Shown here one piece after another: positions 1-19,899 of a stretch of DNA of 20,000 bases. The notes under the pieces are model-generated. The model searched no databases. It was not told the DNA's origin and saw only the letters and a list, made by a program, of their open reading frames with translations. The DNA comes from an uncultured virus (IMG/VR IMGVR_UViG_3300014676_000001) (taxonomy: Duplodnaviria > Heunggongvirae > Uroviricota > Caudoviricetes). The position numbers and the translations under genes are program-made. The DNA lies in IMG/VR virus record IMGVR_UViG_3300014676_000001, positions 57,432 to 77,431 of that record; one strand, 5' to 3'. Position 1 is the first letter of the stretch. Each line of letters begins with the position of its first letter.

Positions 1-14
1 TCGCACGCTTTTCC

Positions 15-132
15 GTTTTCATAGACATGGGCGTTGCTGCGGAACGGGTTCATTGGCCAATCTGCGTCGCGTATAGCGTAACGGGTTCATTGCCCAATCT
101 GCGTCGCGTATAGCGCTCATGTCTATGAGAGT
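15..132 (+). other. Long inverted-repeat hairpin (candidate structured leader or ncRNA) upstream of the J/H-like gene
   Basis: TCATAGACATGGGCG (19-33) is complementary to CGCTCATGTCTATGA (114-128) with one G-U pair. The stem extends with G-U pairs to about 15-36/111-132. Confidence 0.6.
43..115. repeat. Tandem direct duplication, period 37 bp
   Basis: AACGGGTTCATTG(G/C)CCAATCTGCGTCGCGTATAGCG at 43-78 and 80-115; 35/36 identical (g56 vs c93), separated by one base. Confidence 0.97.
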
Positions 133-160
133 TTCCTCAACACATCTAAAAGGATTCATC

Positions 161-952
161 ATGTCAGGACCTGTAAGCATCAGTCATGTAGCAACGATGT
201 CTAAACCGTTTGGTGTAAACGTCGAATGGAAATGGCCAAATGGCAGCAGCTGGTTTTCCAAGCTGGAACTGCAATGCCTCCGCGAAGACGGGCGGCTAGT
301 GAAAGAGTGCATATATTATCCGAATACTAGCCATCTTATTTCCGGTCTTAAAAGTGGTGAGCGCGTGCAGGTACGGGTGCGCATCGTCGCAGCGAACGGT
401 TCTATCCGAGACTGGCAGGTTAGTGACTGGATTCAAGGCGAATCATCTGTTGATGCTGGCGATATCGCCCAGTGGTTGGAAGACGAAATCCGGAACAGTG
501 AGACGTTTAAAGTATTTCGTGGCCAGTGCTTTATTAACGAAGCAAAGATAGGCAATGGCATCGTTTCTACGAACTATAACGTGAAGTTGAACGTCGTCGA
601 CAAAGGCAAACTGCACGAAGCTGGCATGACTCTCGGTGTTGAAGATGGCCAGAGCAACGTTGAGTTTATGGCTGATCGCTTTCATGTGCATGAAGCCGCT
701 CAATCAATTATCGGAAACGCCGTCGCAACAAAAACGAAGATAAATATCGCACTTGGCGATGAAACGAAGCAGGCCGTCATTGATGCCGTGCGTGAAAGCG
801 ATTTGTTCGCATCCCTCCAGGCAAAGATTGAAGCGCAAACAGCTTCAGTAGTTGGCTTGCAACAGGCGATGCACGAAGCTGTGAACGATGCTCTCCGCAA
901 CGCGCTCAAGCCAGGCGGTGCGGTATGGGCTCGGATGAAACATGGATTTTGA
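161..952 (+). CDS. Tail-tip-like accessory protein (gpJ-like FN3 and C-terminal segments, probably DUF1983-related, plus a tape-measure-like C-terminus), 263 aa
   Basis: ORF 119-952; ATG 161 preferred because AGGA lies at 151-154. Visible similarity to this window's gpJ (FGVNVEWKWP/FGIELNWGFP; AGMTLGVE..FMADRF/AGMGIGVE..FLADRF) and to the gpH C-terminus ([18 protein letters not shown]). Confidence 0.8.
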   Translation: MSGPVSISHVATMSKPFGVNVEWKWPNGSSWFSKLELQCLREDGRLVKECIYYPNTSHLISGLKSGERVQVRVRIVAANGSIRDWQVSDWIQGESSVDAGDIAQWLEDEIRNSETFKVFRGQCFINEAKIGNGIVSTNYNVKLNVVDKGKLHEAGMTLGVEDGQSNVEFMADRFHVHEAAQSIIGNAVATKTKINIALGDETKQAVIDAVRESDLFASLQAKIEAQTASVVGLQQAMHEAVNDALRNALKPGGAVWARMKHGF

Positions 953-981
953 TGCCTGTCCCAGCGCCCTCCGGGTTGCAT

Positions 982-988
982 GGGTCCT
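982..988 (+). other. cosQ: cosQ packaging termination subsite
   Basis: GGGTCCT, identical to lambda cosQ, followed by 23 bp (TTCCGGCAATCCGGCCTGTTACG) to the cohesive end, the same spacing as I recall for lambda. Confidence 0.9.
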
Positions 989-1011
989 TTCCGGCAATCC
1001 GGCCTGTTACG

Positions 1012-1023
1012 GGGCGGCGTCCG
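1012..1023 (+). other. cosN: cosN, predicted 12-nt 5' cohesive end GGGCGGCGTCCG
   Basis: GTTACG^GGGCGGCGTCCG directly upstream of terS. Lambda is GGGCGGCGACCT; this variant matches my recollection of the N15 end. It is followed by the lambda I2-like TCGCTATATATGAAAATTTT. Confidence 0.9.
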
Positions 1024-1059
1024 CGCAGATTCTCGCTATATATGAAAATTTTGGACATG

Positions 1060-1071
1060 AGGTTGTTGTTT
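1060..1071 (+). promoter_or_regulatory. Candidate cosB R3 (TerS binding site)
   Basis: AGGTTGTTGTTT lies about 50 bp right of the nick, where lambda R3 sits. An inverted 10/12 copy is at 1259-1270. Confidence 0.55.
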
Positions 1072-1099
1072 AATCATTGCTGAAAACAGGTGAGGAAAT

Positions 1100-1606
1100 A
1101 TGGCCGTGCTATTGAATAAATCTGATATGGCTTCCTCGCTGGGAATATCTGTCCAGGCCTTTGATAAATGGGGCGTCCAGCCTGTAGAGAAGAAAGGGAG
1201 AGAAGTCTTCTTTGACGTTCGCTCAGTCGTTGATAACCGCATCGAACACCAGAGCCGAAAACTACAACCATCGCCAGGCGAGGACGATGATAGCGTCAAT
1301 ATTGATTATGAACGTTGGCGTTTAACTCGTGCGAATGCGGATGCGGCGGAACTGGCAAATGAGAAAAAGCGTCGCGAGGTCGTAGAGACAGCGTTTTGTA
1401 CCTTCGTGTTATCCAGAATAGCCGCTGAAATATCCAGTATTCTGGATGGCATCCCACTCTCGATGCAGCGCCGTTTCCCTGAACTGGAAAATCGGCATAT
1501 CGAGTTCCTGAAAGGGGACGTAATAAAGGCGATGAATAAGGCTGCGGCGCTGGATGAACGGATTCCGGGGTTGTTGAATGATTATATCGACCAGTCAGGT
1601 AGCTAA
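1100..1606 (+). CDS. nu1: Terminase small subunit (Nu1 family)
   Basis: N-terminal HTH (LNKSDMASSLGISVQAFDKW); lambda Nu1-like IDYERWRLTRANADAAEL..EVVETAFCTFVLSRIA; GAGG RBS; follows cos. Confidence 0.96.
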   Translation: MAVLLNKSDMASSLGISVQAFDKWGVQPVEKKGREVFFDVRSVVDNRIEHQSRKLQPSPGEDDDSVNIDYERWRLTRANADAAELANEKKRREVVETAFCTFVLSRIAAEISSILDGIPLSMQRRFPELENRHIEFLKGDVIKAMNKAAALDERIPGLLNDYIDQSGS

Positions 1607-3500
1607 TCTGCGAACAGCGGTAAAAGCTGGTCTGAAATCACTATACCGCCCGGAACCCATGACAGCTGTCGAATGGGCCGATGCGCATTATTACCTTCCG
1701 AAGGAATCCGCTTATCAGGAAGGGCGCTGGGAAACACTGCCATTTCAGCGCGCGATCATGAATGCGATGGGCAGCGACTATATTCGCATTGTTAACGTAA
1801 TTAAGTCGGCGCGAGTGGGCTATTCGAAAATGCTCCTCGGCGTCATTGCTTATTTCATCGAGCATAAACAACGTAATGAGTTGCTGTGGCTGCCGACCGA
1901 CGGCGACGCAGATAATTTCATGAAGTCACACGTTGAACCGACGATTCGTGATGTTCCCTCATTGCTGTCGCTCGCCCCCTGGTACGGGAAAAAACACAGG
2001 GACAACACCCTGTCCATGAAGCGTTTTACGAACGGACGCGGTTTCTGGTGCCTGGGTGGTAAATCTGCAAAGAACTATCGCGAAAAATCTGTCGATGTTG
2101 TTGGTTACGATGAGCTGGCTGCGTTTGATGCAGACATTGAGAAAGAAGGGTCTCCGACCTTCCTGGGGGATAAGCGTATTGAGGGTTCTGTTTGGCCCAA
2201 ATCCATACGCGGCTCAACACCAAAATTGCGTGGAACGTGCCAGATAGAGCGAGCAGCAAAAGAGTCCGGGCATTTTATGCGTTTTCATGTTGCATGCCCG
2301 CATTGTGGTGAGGAGCAGTACCTCAAATTTGGCGATCGGGATACGCCTTTCGGCTTCAAATGGGAGCCAGAGCAGGCTGAGACGGTTTACTACCTCTGTG
2401 AACATAATGCCTGTGTCATTAAGCAGCATGAACTGGACTTTTCCAACGCTCGTTACATTTGCGAACTGACAGGAATATGGACTCGTGACGGACTTCGTTG
2501 GTTCTCATCTTCCAATGCAGAAATCGACCCACCTGAAAGCGTAACCTTCCACATCTGGACAGCTTATAGCCCGTTCACCACCTGGGTACAGATTGTGAAA
2601 GACTGGTTCAAAACGCAAGGTGATACGGGTAAACGTAAGACATTCGTTAACACCACCTTGGGTGAGACGTGGGAAGCGAAAATCGGTGATCGCCCCGATG
2701 CGGATGTTTTAGCTGAGCGCATAGAGCACTTTGATGCAGCCGTACCTGAGCGAGTGGCATATCTGACGGCGGGTATAGATTCCCAGCTCGACCGTTACGA
2801 AATGCGTGTATGGGGGTGGGGACCAGGCGAGGAAAGTTGGCTTATCGACAGGCAAATCATCATGGGACGTCACGATGATGAGTCAACTCTTGCGCGTGTG
2901 GATGAGGCGATTAACAAGACATATACACGCCGAAACGGTGTAGAAATGCCTATTTCCCGTATTTGCTGGGATATCGGTGGTATTGATCCCACTATCGTCT
3001 ACAACCGCTCAAAAAAACACGGTTTGTTTCGCGTGATCCCGATAAAGGGTGCTTCGGTTTATGGAAAACCAGTGGCGAACATGCCACGTAAGCGCAACAA
3101 AAACGGTGTTTATCTGACTGAAGTGGGTACTGATACCGCTAAAGAGCAGATTTATAACCGCTTCACGCTGATTGTTGAAGGTGACGAGCCTCTGGCCGGT
3201 GCCGTTCACTTCCCTAATAACCCCGATATTTACGATCTTTCAGAGGCGCAGCAGCTGACCGCTGAAGAACTGGTCGAGAAGTGGGTCGATGGTAAAAGAA
3301 AAATCATATGGGACAGCAAAAAAAGGCGAAATGAGGCTCTGGATTGCTTCGTTTACGCACTGGCGGCGCTTCGTATCAGCATATCACGCTGGCAGCTTAA
3401 CCTTGATTCGCTTCTGGCCAGCCTGCTGGAAGAAGAAGGCTCCCGTAACAATAACAAGACCCTGGCGGATTACGCGCGGGCTTTATCTGGAGAGGAATAA
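1578..3500 (+). CDS. A: Terminase large subunit (gpA), 640 aa
   Basis: Walker A KSARVGYS, Walker B VVGYDE, nuclease AGIDSQ, C-terminal [12 protein letters not shown]; overlaps terS as in lambda. Confidence 0.98.
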
Positions 3501-11058: not shown

Positions 11059-11387
11059 AATTTGCCATGAAACTGGCGCGTGAGTTCGGTCGCCCGGACT
11101 GGCGTGCCATGCTTGCTGGCATGTCCTCAACGGAGTACGGCGACTGGAAAATCTTCTACCAGGACAATTATTTTCATGATGCGCAACTGGATGCTCATTT
11201 CTCCGGTTTGCTCTACACCATCTCAACCCTGTTTTTTGCCGATCCGGAATTATCCCCGGACAGTTTCAGTATCCTTTCCCCTGCATTGGAAGCCATCGAC
11301 ATCGATGATCCGGATGACGATACGCTGATGGCGAAGGCTGAAGGTATTTCAGGAGGCGTGCGCTATGGCCCAGACGTCAGTCGGTGA
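11040..11387 (+). CDS. T: gpT region (C-terminal part of the gpGT frameshift product)
   Basis: [40 protein letters not shown]; in the -1 frame relative to G (first ATG at 11067). Confidence 0.92.
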
Positions 11388-13881
11388 TCTGGTCGTTAAC
11401 CTTGACGTTAACTCGACGAAGTTCAGCGAACAGCTCAACTACGTCAAAAAAGAATTAAAACAGACAGGAAACACGGCGAACGACGAAGCGTTACGTATCC
11501 AGCAGTCCTTCAGCCGTCAGGAGATCGCCGCACGTAAGGCGGGTATTTCAGTCGGCCAGTATACCGCAGCGATGCGTATGCTTCCGGCGCAGTTTACCGA
11601 TGTGGCCACGCAGCTGGCAGGTGGGCAGAATCCCTGGCTGATTCTGCTTCAGCAGGGTGGTCAGGTTAAGGACTCCTTTGGCGGGATCATACCGACATTC
11701 CGTGCGCTACTGGGGACTATTTCCCCGGTGATGGTGGGTATCGGTGCTTTGTCTATTGCAACAGGGGCTCTGTTCTATACCTGGTACCAGGGTTCTTCCA
11801 CACTGTCTGATTTCAACAAAACGCTGGTACTGTCGGGTAACACAGCCGGACTGACTGCCGACCGCATGCTCGTGCTGTCGCGAAACGGTCAGGCTGCGGG
11901 GCTGACGTTCAACCAGACAAGTGAAGCTCTGACGGAGCTTATTAATGCTGGCGTACGTACCGGCTCGCGCTTTGATGAAATGAGCCAGGCTGTGGCGCGT
12001 TTTACTGATGCCTCCGGCGTGCCGGTGGATAAGGTTGCTGCCGCCTACGGTAAGCTCGTAACAGACCCTACATCGGGCCTGATCGCGATGGCCCAGCAGT
12101 TTCACAACGTTACCGCAGAACAGATTGCGCATGTGGCGCAGTTACAGCGTGCCGGTGATGAGGCTGGCGCACTGCAAGCGGCTAACGAGGCCGCGACTGC
12201 CGGATTCAACGATCAGACCAAAGCCATCCGTGACAATATGGGATTGATTGAATCTTCAGCGGACTCCCTGAAGCGCGCCTTCAAGTCGATGTGGGATGCA
12301 GCACTTGATATAGGCCGTCCTGACACTGCGCAGGAGATGGTGGCAAAAGCTGAAGCAGCTTTCAAAAAGGCCGATGAAATCTGGAACCTGCGGAAGGGTG
12401 ACCGTTATGTGAACGACGAGGCACGTGCCAGGTTCTGGAATGATCGCGAAACGGCAAGACTGGCGCTGGATATGGCGCAGCAGCAGGCGGGTATTGCTAA
12501 AGCGAACGAGGAGAATGCCTCTCGTGAAGCAGCTGCGGAATCAGACCGTCAGAAATATGCCGCGCAGGCGCAGGCAAACTATGCCAAAACTCAGACAGCC
12601 CTGGAAAAATACACGGCGCGTCAGAATGAGCTTAACAAGGCGCTGAAAGAGGGCAGGATTCTTCAGGCTGACTACAACATCAACATGGCTGTAGCGAAAA
12701 AAGAGTATGAAGATACCCTTAAAAAGCCGAAGAAAACTTCTGCTGTCAGAACCCCTTCCGGTACCCGCGCGACCGACAACGCCAGTGCTCAGACTATGGC
12801 GCTGGAAGCACAACTGCGCACCCTTCAGGAGCACAAGGGTATAAATGACACCATCAGTCAGCAGCGCCAGGAGCTCTGGCGTCAGCAGTCGCGTTTTGCC
12901 GTTCTGGAAGAGGCTGCCAAAACAAGGACTCTTTCAGCAGAAGAGAAATCCCTGCTGGCCAGCAAGAGTGAAGTGCTTTCCCGGGCAGAACTGAATGCGA
13001 AGCTCGGTGATCAGATTGTGGCGCAGGAGCGGCTTAACCGGCTACAGGACACATCACAGAAGTACGTGACCCAAATCGGGGAGAAAACTCGCGCCCTGGC
13101 GGAAAGTGCTGGCATGAGTAGTCGTGCAGCACAGCGACGCAATGAAGAGGCCCAGCTTCTTCAGGGATGGAAAAATGGTGGTGGATCTGAAAAAGATGCC
13201 GGTTATCAGAAAGAGCTACAGGCACTGCATGCGTATTACGCAGAGCAGGATAAGCAGCGAGACGACTGGCAGTCCGGGGCAAAATCCGCATGGGCAGATT
13301 ATGTTGATTCTGCTTCTGATGCTTATGGCCAGATGAAGTCGTTTGCCAGCAGTACGTTTGATGGCATCGGGCAGAATATGGCTGACATGCTGACACGCGG
13401 AAAGGCTGACTGGGCTGACTTTACCCGCTCCACACTCTCTATGCTGACGCAGATTCTGATGAAGCAGGCGATGGTCGGCCTGGTGGATTCAGCCACGACG
13501 GCACTGGGGTTTGCAGGTGGAGGTTATACCGGTTCAGGCGGGAAATATGAGCCAGCTGGCGTTGTTCACCGTGGGGAATTTGTTTTCACCAAAGAGGCAA
13601 CCAGCCGGATCGGTGTCGGCAATCTCTACAAAATGATGAAGGGTTATGCCAGTGGCGGCTATGTGGGTGGAGGTTCATCTGCTGGCGTCGGTGCGCCGTT
13701 CGGTGTCAGTGTTTATGCTCCGGTGACGGTCGAGAATGCCTCCGGTGACGCACAGCAGCAAAACGACGGTAACAGACTGGGTAAGGCATACCAGCAGGTG
13801 ATTAACAAATCTGTTAACGAGGGCATTGCTAAGGCTATCCAGCCCGGTGGGCTTATCTGGAATGCGAACAATCGCAGGTAA
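11365..13881 (+). CDS. H: Tape measure protein gpH, 838 aa
   Basis: [71 protein letters not shown]; helical and Ala-rich. Confidence 0.97.
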
Positions 13882-14987: not shown

Positions 14988-15719
14988 ATGCGTCAGAAAA
15001 CTATAAACGCCATCATGGCGCACGCCGCAGCGGAATATCCGCGCGAGTGCTGCGGTGTAGTGGCGCAGAAAAGCCGGGTAGAGCGCTATTTCCCCTGCCG
15101 AAACCTCTCAGCAGAGCCGACTGAGCATTTTCACCTCTCACCTGAAGATTACGCCGCCGCAGAAGACTGGGGAACGGTGGTGGCCATTGTGCACAGCCAT
15201 CCTGATGCGACAACGCACGCCAGTGAGCTGGATAAGGCGCAGTGTGATGCAACGCTTCTGCCCTGGCATATCGTGAGCTGGCCAGAGGGGGATTTACGCA
15301 CTATTCAGCCGCGCGGGGAGTTGCCGTTGCTGGAGCGACCGTTTGTGCTGGGCCATTTCGATTGCTGGGGCCTGGTAATGAGCTACTTCCGGCAGACCCA
15401 CGGTATCGAGCTCCACGATTACCGCGTCGACTATCCCTGGTGGGAGAACGGCTACCCTGAAAACTTCTACCAGGACTGCTGGTACGAATGCGGATTCAGG
15501 GAGTTTGAAGGACCACCTCAGGAAGGTGATCTGGTCATCATGCAGGTACAGGCCGACAAGTGGAATCACGCGGGGATTTTACTGGAGGGTAATATGCTTC
15601 TGCACCATCTGTACGGTCATCTGAGCCAGCGTGTGCCGTATGGCGGATACTGGCAGGAGCGCACAATGAAAATAGTCCGTTATAAAGATGTCGGAGGCGG
15701 TGAAACATGCAGGAAGTAA
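14988..15719 (+). CDS. K: Tail tip assembly protein gpK (JAB/MPN plus NlpC/P60 domains)
   Basis: ATG 14988 after AGGAG; PRECCG, VHSHP, DCWGLV, NHAGI motifs. Confidence 0.93.
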   Translation: MRQKTINAIMAHAAAEYPRECCGVVAQKSRVERYFPCRNLSAEPTEHFHLSPEDYAAAEDWGTVVAIVHSHPDATTHASELDKAQCDATLLPWHIVSWPEGDLRTIQPRGELPLLERPFVLGHFDCWGLVMSYFRQTHGIELHDYRVDYPWWENGYPENFYQDCWYECGFREFEGPPQEGDLVIMQVQADKWNHAGILLEGNMLLHHLYGHLSQRVPYGGYWQERTMKIVRYKDVGGGETCRK

Positions 15720-16297
15720 TGAGCCGTATCGAGCTTGGTGCAGAGCTGGGAAAAACGTTTGGTAAAGTTCACTACCGCCTGATTTCTCGTGTGAGTGAGG
15801 CGGGAGTTGCACTGGCAAAGACCATACCGGGGTTTGAGCAGTTTATGATTTCCAGCCAGCGCCGTGGGCTCACTTATTCAGTGTTTAAAGGTAAAAAAAA
15901 TATCGGTGTGGATGACCTTGGCTTTCCGGTTACCGGCGATGTTATCCGCATTGTTCCGGTGATTATCGGGAGTAAAAAAGCCGGTGTATTACAGACCATT
16001 TTAGGTGCGGTTCTGGTTGCTGTAGGGGCAGTGCTTAATTTCACACCCTGGGCCGCTGCATCTCCATTCTTCTACAAATTTGGTGCTGCGGTCATGCTGG
16101 GCGGCGTTGTCCAGATGCTTTCCCCTCAACCAGGGGGCCTGGCCAGCAAACAAAGCTCAGATAACCGGGCCTCATACGCGTTCGGTGGCGTCACAAACAC
16201 CGCAGCGCAGGGCTACCCGGTACCGCTTCTTTACGGTCGCCGACGAATTGGCGGCGCGATTATTTCTGCCGGAATTTACGTCGAAGATCAGCAGTAA
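15707..16297 (+). CDS. I: Tail tip assembly protein gpI
   Basis: LGKTFG, IRIVPVIIGSKKAGVLQTILGAVLVAVG, NTAAQGYPVPLLYG. Confidence 0.94.
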   Translation: MQEVMSRIELGAELGKTFGKVHYRLISRVSEAGVALAKTIPGFEQFMISSQRRGLTYSVFKGKKNIGVDDLGFPVTGDVIRIVPVIIGSKKAGVLQTILGAVLVAVGAVLNFTPWAAASPFFYKFGAAVMLGGVVQMLSPQPGGLASKQSSDNRASYAFGGVTNTAAQGYPVPLLYGRRRIGGAIISAGIYVEDQQ

Positions 16298-16347: not shown

Positions 16348-19300
16348 ATGGCTATCTCAACTCCGATTAGAGGCCGCAAGGGCGGCAGTTCCAGTTCCCG
16401 GACCCCTACCGAACAGCCTGACGATCTCCAGTCCGTAGCAAAGGCCAAAATTCTTGTTGCGCTGGGCGAGGGCGAGTTTGCCGGGCAGCTAACAGCTAAA
16501 GATATCTACCTTGATGGCACGCCACTTGAGAACGCAGACGGATCGCAAAACTTCAGTGGCGTGGCCTGGGAGTTTCGTCCGGGGACTCAGGCGCAAAAAT
16601 ACATTCAGGGTATCCCCGGTACCGAAAATGAAATCAGCGTGGGTACCGAAGTTTCAAGTACCACCGCCTGGACACACACTTTTACCAACACTTTACTCTC
16701 AGCCGTTCGCCTGCGGCTCAAATGGCCGTCGCTTTTTAAACAGGAAGACGACGGCGATCTGGTCGGGAATTCAATCAACTACGCTGTTGATTTGCAGACG
16801 GATGGCGGCACCTGGCAGACGGTGCTTAATACCAGCGTAACCGGCAAGACTACCTCCGGCTATGAACGCAGCCATCGTATCGACTTACCGCAGGCCGGAA
16901 GCACCTGGACAGTGCGCCTGCGAAAGCTTACTCCAGATGCCAATAGCGCGAAAATTGGCGATACGATGACGCTGGAGAGCTATACAGAGGTTATTGACGC
17001 CAAATTGCGTTATCCAAATACAGCACTGCTGTATATCGAATTTGACTCCAGCCAGTTTAATGGTTCTATCCCGCAGATAGCCTGCGAACCGCGAGGGCGT
17101 GTTATCCGTGTACCGGATACGTATGACCCGGAAACCCGCACCTATAGCGGAACCTGGCTGGGAGCGTTTAAATGGGCGTGGACAGACAATCCGGCCTGGA
17201 TTTTTTATGATCTGGTGGTCAGTGACCGCTTTGGGCTTGGCAACCGGCTGTCTGCGGCAAATATTGATAAATGGACCCTTTACCAGGTTGCCCAGTATTG
17301 CGATCAGCCAGTACCGGACGGGAAAGGCGGTTCCGGAACCGAACCCCGCTATACGTGTAACGTTTATGTGCAGGAGAGAAATGACGCCTATACCGTTTTA
17401 CGTGATTTTGCGGCCATATTCCGTGGCATGACGTACTGGGGTGGCGATCAAATCGTTGCCCTGGCCGATATGCCCCGTGATGTGGACTACAGCTACACGC
17501 GCGCAAACGTTGTTGACGGGCGCCTTACCTATTCTGGTAGCACAACGAATAACCGCTATACCACAGCACTGGTTTCCTGGTCCGATCCGGGAAATGCCTA
17601 CGCAGACGCGATGGAGCCTGTATTTGAACAGGAGCTCGTGGCTCGCTTTGGAACAAACCAGCTCGAAATGACAGCCATCGGCTGCACCCGCCAGTCAGAG
17701 GCAAACCGCAAGGGGCGCTGGGGTATTCTGACCAATAACAAGGATCGTATCGTATCGTTCAGCGTTGGTCTGGATGGCAGGATTCCACAGCCTGGCCATA
17801 TCATAGCGGTTGCCGATGAGCTGTTATCCGGAAAGGTTATGGGAGGCCGCATCAGCGCCGTTAACGGTCGCGTTATCACTCTCGATCGTAATTCGGCAGC
17901 TGCTCCCGGCAGTCGCCTTATGGTTAACCTGCCGTCAGGTGCATCGCAGAGTAGAACGATACAGAGCGTTAACGGTCGGGCAGTCACCGTAACCACGGCA
18001 TACAGCGAAACCCCGGCAGTGGAATCGGTGTGGATAGTCGAATCCGATGAGCTGTATGCACAGCAATATCGTGTTATCAGCGTCACAGATAATAATGACG
18101 GAACGTTTTCGATTTCTGGCGCTATGCACGATCCGGATAAGTATGCACGTATTGATACCGGCGCCATTATCGACCAGCGGCCAATAAGTGTTATTCCTCC
18201 AGGTAACCAGTCCCCCCCATCTAACATCGTGATCAGCTCATTCTCTGTGGTTCAGCAGAATGTGAGTGTTCAGACCATGCGCGTCAGCTGGGACCAGGCC
18301 AAGAATGCCATCGCCTATGAAGCACAGTGGCGCCGGAACGACGGGAACTGGGTTAATGTGCCGCGCAGCTCCACCACATCATTCGACGTTCCGGGGATTT
18401 ACGCAGGACGATACCTGGTGCGCGTGCGTGCCATCAATGCTGCTGAAATATCATCCGGGTGGGGATATTCGGAGGAAAAAACACTTACGGGCAAAGATGG
18501 AAATCCACCTAAGCCGGTGGGCTTCACTGCTTCTGAAAACGTGGTATTCGGTATCGAACTGAACTGGGGATTCCCGGCGAACACCGACGACACTCTGAAG
18601 ACGGAAATTCAGTACAGTCTGACCGGCACCGAAGACGATGCGATATTGTTGGCTGATGTGCCTTACCCACAACGCAAGTATCAGCAGATGGGCCTTAAGG
18701 CTGGGCAGATTTTCTGGTACCGGGCGCAGCTGGTAGATCGAAGCGGAAACGAATCAGGGTATACAGACTTTGTTCGCGGACAGGCCAGCATCGATGTATC
18801 CGATACCACCGATGCAATCCTGGAGGACATGAAAGGCTCCGATACGTTCAAAGACCTGATCGAGAACGCGGTGGACAGCAATGAAAAAATTGCTGGCATG
18901 GCTGACGACATTAAACAGGCCAACGACGAACTGGCGCAACAGGCGCAGGAAATCGCCAAAAACGCCCAGGATATCTGGAAGGTTCAGACCAGCGTTACAA
19001 ACCTGTCGAGCACGGTCGGAGATGTGTCTTCTTCTCTGAGCAAGCTTGAGCAGACAGTGGCGACGGCTGATACCGCGCTGGGCCAGCGCATCGATAACAT
19101 CAGCGTGTCTGTGGACGGCATGGCGGGGGGAGTGAAGAACTCCGCTATCGCGATTATTCAGGGCAACCTGGCGCAGGTGGCCGCGCGCAAAACGCTGTCG
19201 GCATCGGTCGCCGGTAACAGTGCGCAGCTGGATCGCATTGATGAGGTGATCGTCAACGAGAAGGAGGCAACGGCGCGTTCGCTGCTGAGTGTGCAGACTG

Positions 19301-19899
19301 ACGTGAACGGAAACAAGGCATCCATCAACAGCCTGAACCAGACGTTCTCCGATTACCAGCAGGCCACGGCCACGCAGATAAACGGCATCACGGCGACCAT
19401 CAACGGGCACACGTCAGCGATCACCACCAACGCGCAGGCCATTGCGAACGTCAACGGCGACCTGAAGGCGATGTACAGCATCAAGGTCGGGTTATCCAGC
19501 AACGGCCAGTACTACGCCGCAGGGATGGGGATAGGCGTGGAGAATACGCCGTCCGGCATGCAGTCGCAGATTATCTTCCTGGCTGACCGCTTCGCCGTTA
19601 CTCACCAGGCCGGTGCCACGGTGACCTTACCTTTCGTTATCCAAAACGGGCAGGTGTTCATCAGAGACGCGTTGATAGGTGATGGCACCATCAACAACAA
19701 CAAGATCGGCAACTACATCCAGTCCAATAACTATGTCGCTGGCTCAGTCGGGTGGCGGCTGGATAAGGGCGGTACGTTTGAGAACTACGGTTCGACAGCT
19801 GGTGAGGGGTCCATGAAACAGACAAACCAGACAATCAGCGTGCGGGACTCCAGGAATGTGTTGAGGGTGCAGATCGGGAGAATCACGGGAACATGGTAA
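16348..19899 (+). CDS. J: Central tail fibre / tip attachment protein gpJ, 1183 aa
   Basis: KGGSSSSRTPTEQPDDLQS, YPNTAL, AWTDNPAWIFYD, GCTRQSEANRKGRW; FN3 region, coiled-coil region, FLADRFAV C-terminal region. Confidence 0.97.
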   Translation: MAISTPIRGRKGGSSSSRTPTEQPDDLQSVAKAKILVALGEGEFAGQLTAKDIYLDGTPLENADGSQNFSGVAWEFRPGTQAQKYIQGIPGTENEISVGTEVSSTTAWTHTFTNTLLSAVRLRLKWPSLFKQEDDGDLVGNSINYAVDLQTDGGTWQTVLNTSVTGKTTSGYERSHRIDLPQAGSTWTVRLRKLTPDANSAKIGDTMTLESYTEVIDAKLRYPNTALLYIEFDSSQFNGSIPQIACEPRGRVIRVPDTYDPETRTYSGTWLGAFKWAWTDNPAWIFYDLVVSDRFGLGNRLSAANIDKWTLYQVAQYCDQPVPDGKGGSGTEPRYTCNVYVQERNDAYTVLRDFAAIFRGMTYWGGDQIVALADMPRDVDYSYTRANVVDGRLTYSGSTTNNRYTTALVSWSDPGNAYADAMEPVFEQELVARFGTNQLEMTAIGCTRQSEANRKGRWGILTNNKDRIVSFSVGLDGRIPQPGHIIAVADELLSGKVMGGRISAVNGRVITLDRNSAAAPGSRLMVNLPSGASQSRTIQSVNGRAVTVTTAYSETPAVESVWIVESDELYAQQYRVISVTDNNDGTFSISGAMHDPDKYARIDTGAIIDQRPISVIPPGNQSPPSNIVISSFSVVQQNVSVQTMRVSWDQAKNAIAYEAQWRRNDGNWVNVPRSSTTSFDVPGIYAGRYLVRVRAINAAEISSGWGYSEEKTLTGKDGNPPKPVGFTASENVVFGIELNWGFPANTDDTLKTEIQYSLTGTEDDAILLADVPYPQRKYQQMGLKAGQIFWYRAQLVDRSGNESGYTDFVRGQASIDVSDTTDAILEDMKGSDTFKDLIENAVDSNEKIAGMADDIKQANDELAQQAQEIAKNAQDIWKVQTSVTNLSSTVGDVSSSLSKLEQTVATADTALGQRIDNISVSVDGMAGGVKNSAIAIIQGNLAQVAARKTLSASVAGNSAQLDRIDEVIVNEKEATARSLLSVQTDVNGNKASINSLNQTFSDYQQATATQINGITATINGHTSAITTNAQAIANVNGDLKAMYSIKVGLSSNGQYYAAGMGIGVENTPSGMQSQIIFLADRFAVTHQAGATVTLPFVIQNGQVFIRDALIGDGTINNNKIGNYIQSNNYVAGSVGWRLDKGGTFENYGSTAGEGSMKQTNQTISVRDSRNVLRVQIGRITGTW

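Follow-up and report, generated by a model that had tools for sequence, protein, structure and literature searches.

A tape measure-like C-terminus on J-derived parts in a mobile accessory protein family of N15, phi80 and HK639 that probably acts at the phage tail tip

The stretch of DNA analysed here (the window) comprises 20,000 nucleotides (nt) of an IMG/VR record of an uncultured virus and carries, at 161–952, a gene of the family of N15 gp59, phi80 orf66 and HK639 gp13 (PHROG 13555; phrog_13555 E 6.9e-104), which we call the gp59-like gene. Its product ends in a conserved, specific and strictly C-terminal module that is shared with the ends of lambda-type tape measure proteins (TMPs, homologues of lambda gpH), and carries this module on parts derived from the central tail fibre protein J; the gene itself is a mobile accessory gene. 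Judged by these components, the protein probably acts at the tail tip. Our tentative explanation, to which we give a little less than an even chance, is that it trimerises and shows its TMP-like ends to the hub formed by J and gpI, where it would compete with or replace the TMP end. Positions are those of the window unless stated otherwise, and all features lie on the + strand.

The open reading frame (ORF) of the gp59-like protein ends in QQAMHEAVNDALRNALKPGGAVWARMKHGF, where residues 248–270 are encoded at 860–928 and W270 lies seven residues from the C-terminus. The corresponding segment of the TMP comprises residues 810–832, encoded at 13792–13860, with W832 six residues from the end. BLASTP aligns the two segments without gaps, with 9/23 identities and 18/23 positives (E 4e-4 in a single comparison), and an earlier note on this DNA, which had claimed an ungapped match between the C-termini of the TMP and of the protein preceding the cohesive-end site (cos), is therefore confirmed in its coordinates, letters, identities and tryptophan positions. 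Residue numbers of the gp59-like protein (P0001) run from the start of the longest ORF at 119, which places M15 at nt 161 and gives a length of 263–277 amino acids. As delimited by alignments and profiles, the whole module spans 842–949, including the stretch 860–928, and consists of a helix end, an invariant PGG with a hydrophobic pair between it and W270, and a short basic tail. Its counterpart in the TMP is the C-terminal tip module, residues 804–837 (13774–13875), at a position equivalent to lambda gpH 818–849.

Taken by itself, one pair with only 9/23 identities could reflect a chance or compositional likeness between two amphipathic C-terminal helices with no shared function, as short helical peptides are often alike. 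We consider this highly improbable, given the invariance of PGG, the fixed position at the extreme C-end, and the profile comparisons that follow. From 75 non-redundant gp59-like tails we built a hidden Markov model (HMM) and compared it with 6,848 six-frame ORFs, which cover all loci and the whole record; besides the family itself it matched only TMP C-ends: 14 distinct TMP tails at E ≤ 1e-3, with the window TMP at E 6.5e-7 and the best unrelated ORF at E 0.14. In the opposite direction, an HMM of 34 TMP tails matched 119/124 family members at E ≤ 1e-3, the window protein among them (E 2.2e-7), and 0/124 after the last 40 residues had been shuffled; this direction is not fully independent, because the 34 TMP tails were collected with the joint profile described below. 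The independent tests are the HMM built from gp59-like tails only and a profile–profile comparison with hhalign, for which the TMP tails were taken from loci found via PF09718. The latter aligned 19 gp59-like tails with 11 TMP tails over 34 ungapped columns, with a probability of 98.3% and an E-value of 2.2e-14. The likeness is thus stronger than that of random amphipathic C-termini.

The module is also specific. When a joint 45-position tail profile was compared with 1.84 billion representative proteins, 151 matched at E ≤ 1e-3, 33 of them at E ≤ 1e-10. The best 150 of the 151 divide by length into 37 proteins of more than 450 amino acids, 72 of 140–450 amino acids and 41 short fragments, and the match sits at the extreme C-end in nearly all of these 150. 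Pfam identifies 34/37 of the long proteins as TMPs with PF09718 (Tape_meas_lam_C), while among 70 mid-size proteins scanned, 31 carry PF09327, the J central fibre family Phage_Tail_Tip, seven represent fragments of TMPs and 32 are without a Pfam family; the matches included no further Pfam family. Since the matches are lambda-type TMPs and small J-fragment proteins, the module occurs in two kinds of protein only. Paired gp59-like and TMP tails are about 50% identical at the nucleotide level, with third codon positions near chance, so that recent gene conversion between the two was rejected and the likeness appears to be old and maintained at the protein level.

Within the gp59-like family, which counts 660 homologues at E ≤ 1e-5 (clustered at 90% identity), the majority of them from Enterobacter, E. 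coli, Citrobacter and Salmonella, the C-terminal motif is conserved, as the earlier note required of its idea. PGGxx[W/Y/F] is present 2–12 residues from the C-end in 113/120 of the homologues among the matches listed, the seven exceptions being truncated, frameshifted or changed in one letter, and PGG is invariant across an alignment of 21 diverse members that includes N15 gp59. The window protein has the form PGGAVW seven residues from its end. The function of PHROG 13555 is given as unknown, and family members bear the annotation 'hypothetical' or 'phage tail tip fiber protein'.

The tail persists where the rest of the protein has been swapped, which indicates that the family is modular, with a variable head, a fragment of the J central fibre, a long helix and an invariant tail. 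N15 gp59 is 87% identical to the window protein over residues 1–175 and then has a different C-terminal half, yet it ends in RPGGIIWQATRRNR. In phi80 orf66 an unrelated N-terminal domain and a differing middle are followed by FPGGVIWQQCRR (PGGVIW), with a match to residues 120–274 of the window protein (E 2e-5), and HK639 gp13 has yet another N-terminus and the end KPGGLLYKR. The N-terminal ~80 residues of phi80 orf66 (residues 1–81; L119 5353–5600) are also encoded by a small gene of their own close to the right end of mEp043, mEp213, mEp237 and phiKO2, and more distant versions are found in large phages of Klebsiella, Salmonella and Erwinia; by its distribution this is an independent domain that appears to have been fused to a tail-tip-like module. 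At the nucleotide level, the Aeromonas phage AsXd-1 (L004 20001–20591) is 93% identical to window 785–918, which covers the final ~130 nt of the gene; for HK639 the identity is 90% over window 548–919, and the remaining parts of both differ. Because the identity is confined to this part, a recent exchange of the C-terminal half alone, across host genera, is suggested.

Upstream of the module the product is chimeric: it combines a J-derived FNIII domain with the first shaft helix, a central-fibre fragment and a helix of ~35 residues, which leads into the PGG-containing end. The FNIII-like domain and the helix following it (176–508) correspond to the final FNIII domain of the window J protein and the beginning of its helical shaft (gp59-like residues 10–131 against J 713–835, nt 18484–18852; BLASTP E 9e-11). 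The Pfam fn3 match in this region is below the cut-off. An AF2 monomer of the protein (mean pLDDT 61) is confident only for the FNIII part, about residues 20–130, for which sequence matches in the PDB are J-like proteins and the F2-pyocin tail fibre (25vf_A, at 713–833). The fragment of the J central straight fibre lies at 554–703 (PF09327, residues 146–195, E 3.1e-8), and residues 146–197 are 37% identical to J 1036–1092 (nt 19453–19623; BLASTP E 1e-7). It is followed by a long predicted α-helix at 800–907 (residues 228–263; DSSP on the AF2 model, pLDDT ~55), with hydrophobic residues at 3–4 spacing whose conserved columns are common to TMP tails; we presume that this helix forms a trimeric coiled coil.

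Like lambda gpJ, the protein has an FNIII domain, a shaft helix and a PF09327 fragment (domain names as used in the available text of PMC11101478), but unlike gpJ it lacks the hub and receptor-binding domains and most of the shaft, its segments are in a different order, and its end is that of a TMP. With one FNIII-like domain and a PF09327 fragment of 50 residues, and without hub domains, it does not qualify as a J protein, and the view that J-like parts are here fused to a TMP-like end, and not simply duplicated from J, is upheld. It is not a TMP either, as Pfam finds neither PF06791 nor PF09718 in it. The likeness is to the tip segment of TMPs such as lambda gpH and PyoF5, in which an amphipathic helix, strictly at the C-terminus, leads into GG, a hydrophobic pair, one aromatic residue and a short basic tail; the difference is in the carrier, a J-fragment protein of 263–277 amino acids instead of a tape measure.

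What the TMP end does in solved tails gives this likeness its meaning. In the lambda virion, gpH residues 818–842 form a three-helix coiled coil and residues 818–849 have been modelled, with the gpH end resting on the C-terminal trimer (tripod) of gpI inside the J/L hub, according to the available text of the structural papers (PMC10721106, PMC12617516, PMC11101478). In the F-type pyocin, similarly, three TMPs are described as forming a coiled coil that contacts the trimeric TAP, the counterpart of gpI (PMC13455828, available text). These descriptions support the statement that the TMP C-terminus docks in the tail-tip complex, which the earlier note had taken as established. In the window, the TMP gene (11365–13881; Pfam TMP_2 E 2.9e-69, Tape_meas_lam_C E 3.3e-22) encodes a C-terminal region that matches lambda gpH (PDB 8iyk_H, E 8e-25), and the gpI homologue, a tail assembly or plug protein and presumed seat of the TMP end, is encoded at 15707–16297. 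The window gpI has 6,241 homologues, named 'tail assembly protein' by their sources and some with PF06805, and by phmmer it matches lambda gpI (L116). The F-type pyocin's TMP (PyoF5, PDB 25vf chain 5) has a PGG-type end, QELRPGGLVWRMVNG, which the joint profile finds in the chain sequence with E 2.7e-6. Lambda gpH ends in DEIQTQMRDGGLFSGGGR (RDGGLFSGGGR), and this DGGLF tail is too diverged for a match to the PGG-type profile. Since the module is family-wide and the TMP end seats on the gpI plug in both lambda and the F-type pyocin, we find it plausible that the gp59-like protein mimics this docking.

The mechanism that we propose would start with trimerisation of the protein through its fibre fragment and helix, after which the three TMP-like ends would dock on the J–I tip initiator, at the site normally taken by the TMP C-end. 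In a third and more speculative step, the protein would act mainly in trans, by capping the tip complexes of other lambda-like phages and so blocking tail growth. This action in trans is favoured by the mobility of the gene across tail types, its residence in prophages and its dispensability in phi80. That the protein caps the J–I tip initiator of incoming lambda-like phages, leaving heads without tails, we regard as possible, though clearly less likely than not; in that case the target range would be set by a few residues around PGGxxW/Y/F.

Several points weigh against the docking proposal and its extension in trans. The trimeric state, the docking and its consequence are all steps that we infer. 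The PGG-type profile scores the lambda gpH tail at 2 bits, which is not significant, and because it misses this tail the transfer from lambda rests on position plus the pyocin case; the pyocin comparison itself concerns the sequence of chain 5 and the available text of the paper, not the extent of the modelled residues. The gene runs in the direction of the late operon in every context seen, and its product is probably synthesised alongside the tail proteins of its phage; a competitor of the TMP end would therefore poison its own phage unless countered, and no partner 'anti' gene is evident. A phi80 lysogen without taiEcA that retains orf66 no longer blocks HK106, HK544 and HK578, by the available text of the report on phi80 (PMC11364771). 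Where the TMP of the same phage has a closely matching end, as in the locus L049 and in N15, it is equally natural to assume a role in the tail of that phage. Finally, PADLOC-DB 2.0 returned no families for each of five family members, so that no PADLOC model covers them, and NCBIfam gave none either. A complex prediction with three copies each of gpI 112–196 and gp59-like residues 225–277 scored 0.00 and was run without controls; it counts neither way.

The pairing of gp59-like tails with the TMP of the same phage bears directly on these alternatives. We compiled 60 pairs, 34 within IMG/VR loci and 26 via a PF09718 search of 30 records, after dropping L012 and L047 (broken TMP) and L026 (frameshifted gp59-like gene). 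All 60 gp59-like tails have PGGxx[WYFH], while the TMP ends have an xGG-hydrophobic-aromatic end in 44/60 and lack it in 16/60 (four PGTPLW, four PGSPLW, three DDGAIGGRF and five NGQARR(M/L)LGV). Moreover, a search with the window gpI found a homologue in 17/20 records, and the three without one are exactly the records with NGQARR-type TMP ends. In these three, each estimated to be at least 93% complete, PF06805 also finds no gpI; they have a different tip module, still with a J-like protein carrying PF09327. Co-variation of the motif with the cognate TMP end, which the earlier note had proposed as a check, is thus not supported as a rule, and strict co-variation was rejected. The cassette moves independently of the tail module.

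These data reduce, without removing, the case that the protein serves the tail of its own phage, either as an accessory component or by helping in its assembly. The TMP-like end would then fasten a small trimer of J-like parts to the tip complex of that phage or inside it, where the trimer might, for instance, hold the place until the TMP comes in, or be a minor constituent of the virion or of the ejected material. We consider such a role rather unlikely. It would account for the J-like domains, which suggest a life at the tip, and for the co-orientation of the gene, embedded among late and structural genes, and it fits the close pairs, namely those of the window, L049 (KPGGLIWNNLRGR), N15, and the HK639-type tails PGGLL[YF] with TMP ends PGGMIY. 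These good pairs are few and lineage-linked, however, and the 28 HK639-type PGGLL[YF]/PGGMIY pairs are mostly not independent, because they belong to one lineage in which the cassette adjoins the TMP gene. A tail serving its own phage is also hard to reconcile with the 16 TMP ends lacking the motif and the three records with no detectable gpI, and with L064 and L077, which share the gp59-like tail ending QPGGAIWTSLRRGI and have TMPs of different types. In addition, orf66 is dispensable in phi80, and a trimer with three FNIII domains would be hard to fit into a lumen of 2–3 nm (dimensions from the available text of PMC11101478). Full-length members are, in the phage collection searched, limited to a handful of lambdoid and N15-like phages (N15, phi80, Fraca, HK639, AsXd-1, FSL SP-016 and MStein-2023a). 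It is the co-orientation with the late operon, together with the lack of an evident antidote, that keeps the own-tail role alive.

These three records also raise the question of whether gpI is the partner at all, since the motif is kept in phages in which no gpI is detectable. The shared module could instead bind a host envelope or periplasmic factor, or the machinery for TMP processing or chaperoning, which the protein would titrate, with entry exclusion or regulation as the outcome. In line with this, the C-terminal domains of gpI are nearly the same in phages with PGGMIY and with DDGAIGGRF TMP ends, from which it follows that the type of TMP tail is not tightly tied to gpI, and the C-fragment of the TMP is described as the first part positioned to exit the tail (PMC12617516, available text). 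We nevertheless think a partner of this kind distinctly unlikely: no signal peptide or membrane segment is evident by eye in the translation (no predictor was used), so that the protein would be cytoplasmic, and in the two structures compared the only partner of the TMP end in the available descriptions is gpI or TAP, in the hub. Among lambda-type TMPs with PF09718 we observed several discrete end types: PGGxxW/Y, NGGLIY, AGGVLY, DGGLF/DDGAIGGRF, PG[ST]PLW and NGQARR(M/L)LGV (loci L015, L052, L055, L105, L112–L115 and L103–L109). Of the well-known phages, N15 has a PGG-W end, phi80 AGGVLY, HK639 PGGMIY and lambda DGGLF.

The docking-mimic proposal, and action in trans in particular, draws further on the genomic contexts of the gene. 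It is found in accessory positions and is co-oriented with the late genes in every context seen. In the window, N15 and phi80 it precedes cos, in FSL SP-016 it stands between the lysis and the terminase genes, and in HK639 it is placed between the major tail gene (V) and the chaperone genes (G), with annotated terminators on both sides. A provirus flag is attached to 20/30 of the IMG/VR records searched. In FSL SP-016 (L003 11737–13194) and AsXd-1 (L004 20850–22307) the next gene after the gp59-like one has 1,458 nt (485 amino acids) in both phages; it is annotated as glycosyltransferase-like in SP-016 and may be linked to the gp59-like gene.

In phi80, orf66 is preceded by taiEcA (orf63), 372 nt upstream of it, and by atiEcA (orf64), 161 nt upstream, and deletion data are available for this region (He et al. 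2024, PMC11364771). According to the available text, the phage still plates after orf62–66 have been deleted as a block, and among single deletions of orf62–66 only the loss of orf64 is reported to lower the titre; orf66 is mentioned there only as a deletion. With the loss of exclusion in the lysogen without taiEcA, these data indicate that orf66 is dispensable in phi80 and does not by itself exclude HK106, HK544 or HK578, phages whose TMP-end types lie outside our comparison.

The presence of orf66 in the same accessory block as taiEcA and atiEcA is also what a decoy might predict, in which a harmless look-alike of the J-fibre and TMP-end surfaces would protect the phage by soaking up host or prophage factors directed at these surfaces, such as Tai-like or Tab-like blockers or sensors. 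Escape mutations from Tai are described in the C-terminal fibre region of J, and the specificity of Tab is linked to the TMP C-terminus (PMC11364771, PMC10884400, available text), and the gp59-like protein combines both kinds of surface in its J pieces and TMP end. We hold this to be quite improbable, since the counter-defence of phi80 has been mapped to orf64 and not to orf66 (PMC11364771, available text), and since J-like parts that are 25–37% identical to the phage's own J would make a poor decoy of its own proteins.

Among known systems, the mimic that we favour would come closest to two blockers of tail assembly. Tab (Patel et al. 2024, PMC10884400), from prophages of Pseudomonas, keeps incoming phages from assembling their tails with a specificity linked to the TMP C-terminus, but belongs to a different host and phage group, and a TMP-like end is not part of its description in the available text, by which we set the two apart. 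TaiEcA of phi80 (orf63) is, like gp59, encoded by a prophage accessory gene in the hotspot just upstream of the packaging module, and tail-tip assembly is the target shown for Tai and proposed here for the gp59-like protein (PMC11364771, available text). Unlike gp59 and orf66, which are co-oriented and have no known partner, taiEcA runs antisense to the late operon, and an anti-Tai partner has been mapped for it; Tai targets J and, as far as the available text describes it, is not a mimic of a tail protein (PMC11364771). Both taiEcA and orf66 are carried by phi80 within 2 kb; homology between the gp59-like protein and TaiEcA was rejected (BLASTP E 72). HK97 gp15 is a moron between tail genes that confers superinfection exclusion, being a membrane protein that blocks DNA entry. 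The gp59-like gene resembles it as an independent cassette among tail genes, in the HK639-type loci, and the protein differs in having no membrane segment evident by eye.

No description of a TMP-like end in the gp59-like family was found in literature listings and abstracts, and the rules by which TMP ends are recognised by the tip look unexplored. This recognition is the first committed step of siphophage tail assembly and also the point attacked by Tab, and a small, natural, soluble protein that carries only the TMP end would be a ready-made probe of what binds it and which residues set the specificity. Should the protein act in trans, a mimicry-based mechanism working through a virion assembly interface would join the known tail-assembly defences, and this would account for a 'hypothetical' gene that is common in prophages of Enterobacter, E. 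coli, Salmonella and Citrobacter. Standard E. coli K-12 phages (N15, phi80, HK639) offer a direct way to test the hypothesis.

The longest ORF of the gp59-like gene spans 119–952. We set the start at M15 (ATG at 161), because family members begin there and a ribosome site, AAAGGA at about 149–154, precedes it; 21/21 aligned members start at the equivalent of M15 or have unrelated extensions. The gene stops 60 nt 5′ of cos, in the prophage hotspot upstream of the packaging module, and would be an accessory gene of the 'moron' type. On its other side, the 3′ half and T-run of a rho-independent terminator, whose stem begins 13 nt before the window, occupy 1–17 and close the upstream late/lysis block; a scan of L118 gave a stem of eight pairs, six of them GC, followed by CTTTTCCGTT. 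A terminator is annotated upstream of N15 gene 59 as well, and the two align. Between the lysis genes and this terminator, at record positions 57077–57388, we noted an ORF of 103 amino acids.

A repeat search identified an upstream cassette at 19–128, in which two 15-nt inverted arms (19–33 and 114–128) enclose tandem 37-bp repeats (39–75 and 76–112). The same cassette is present with a single repeat copy in N15 and in the locus L010. Weak −35/−10-like hexamers occur in each repeat, and the second arm contains an exact CTCAT-N4-ATGAG palindrome. The cassette is possibly a regulated private promoter of the gp59-like gene, a role that we infer only, because a scan for sigma-70 consensus promoters upstream of the gene gave no + strand site. 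CTCAT-N4-ATGAG is not a repeated operator in the 77-kb record, in which it has one exact site and four sites with at most one mismatch, against 2.2 expected. Three transcriptome runs of the same species labels contained no reads on window 1–3000 and say nothing on the timing of expression, and a run from wastewater, recorded as RNA-seq and flagged as probably DNA, yielded only contig pieces.

The window is the right end of an IMG/VR record of 77,431 bases and carries an N15-like late region. Megablast aligns N15 1–1989 with window 1012–3000 at 92.3% identity, and because base 1 of the N15 virion genome aligns at about 1012, cos is placed there, with the cohesive end at 1012–1023; the first 12 bases of the N15 record are given as the sticky end. 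On the 3′ side of cos follow terminase genes of the Nu1/A type, head and tail genes and the lambda-type TMP. The M, L and K genes between TMP and gpI are presumed from position alone, and the gene for the central tail fibre or tip protein J lies at 16348–19899 (Pfam FNIII-A_GpJ, Phage-tail_3 and Phage_Tail_Tip).

Outside the window, record positions 1–33000 hold a second, different structural module with a terminase, a portal, a TMP of 781 amino acids and a J of 1,255 amino acids. This module precedes N15-like replication genes, and the record contains 41 N, so that the 77-kb sequence could represent two phages or a chimeric assembly. The TMP of the second module ends in RPNGLLQGRRK, and the last 25 residues of its J are nearly the same as those of the window J.

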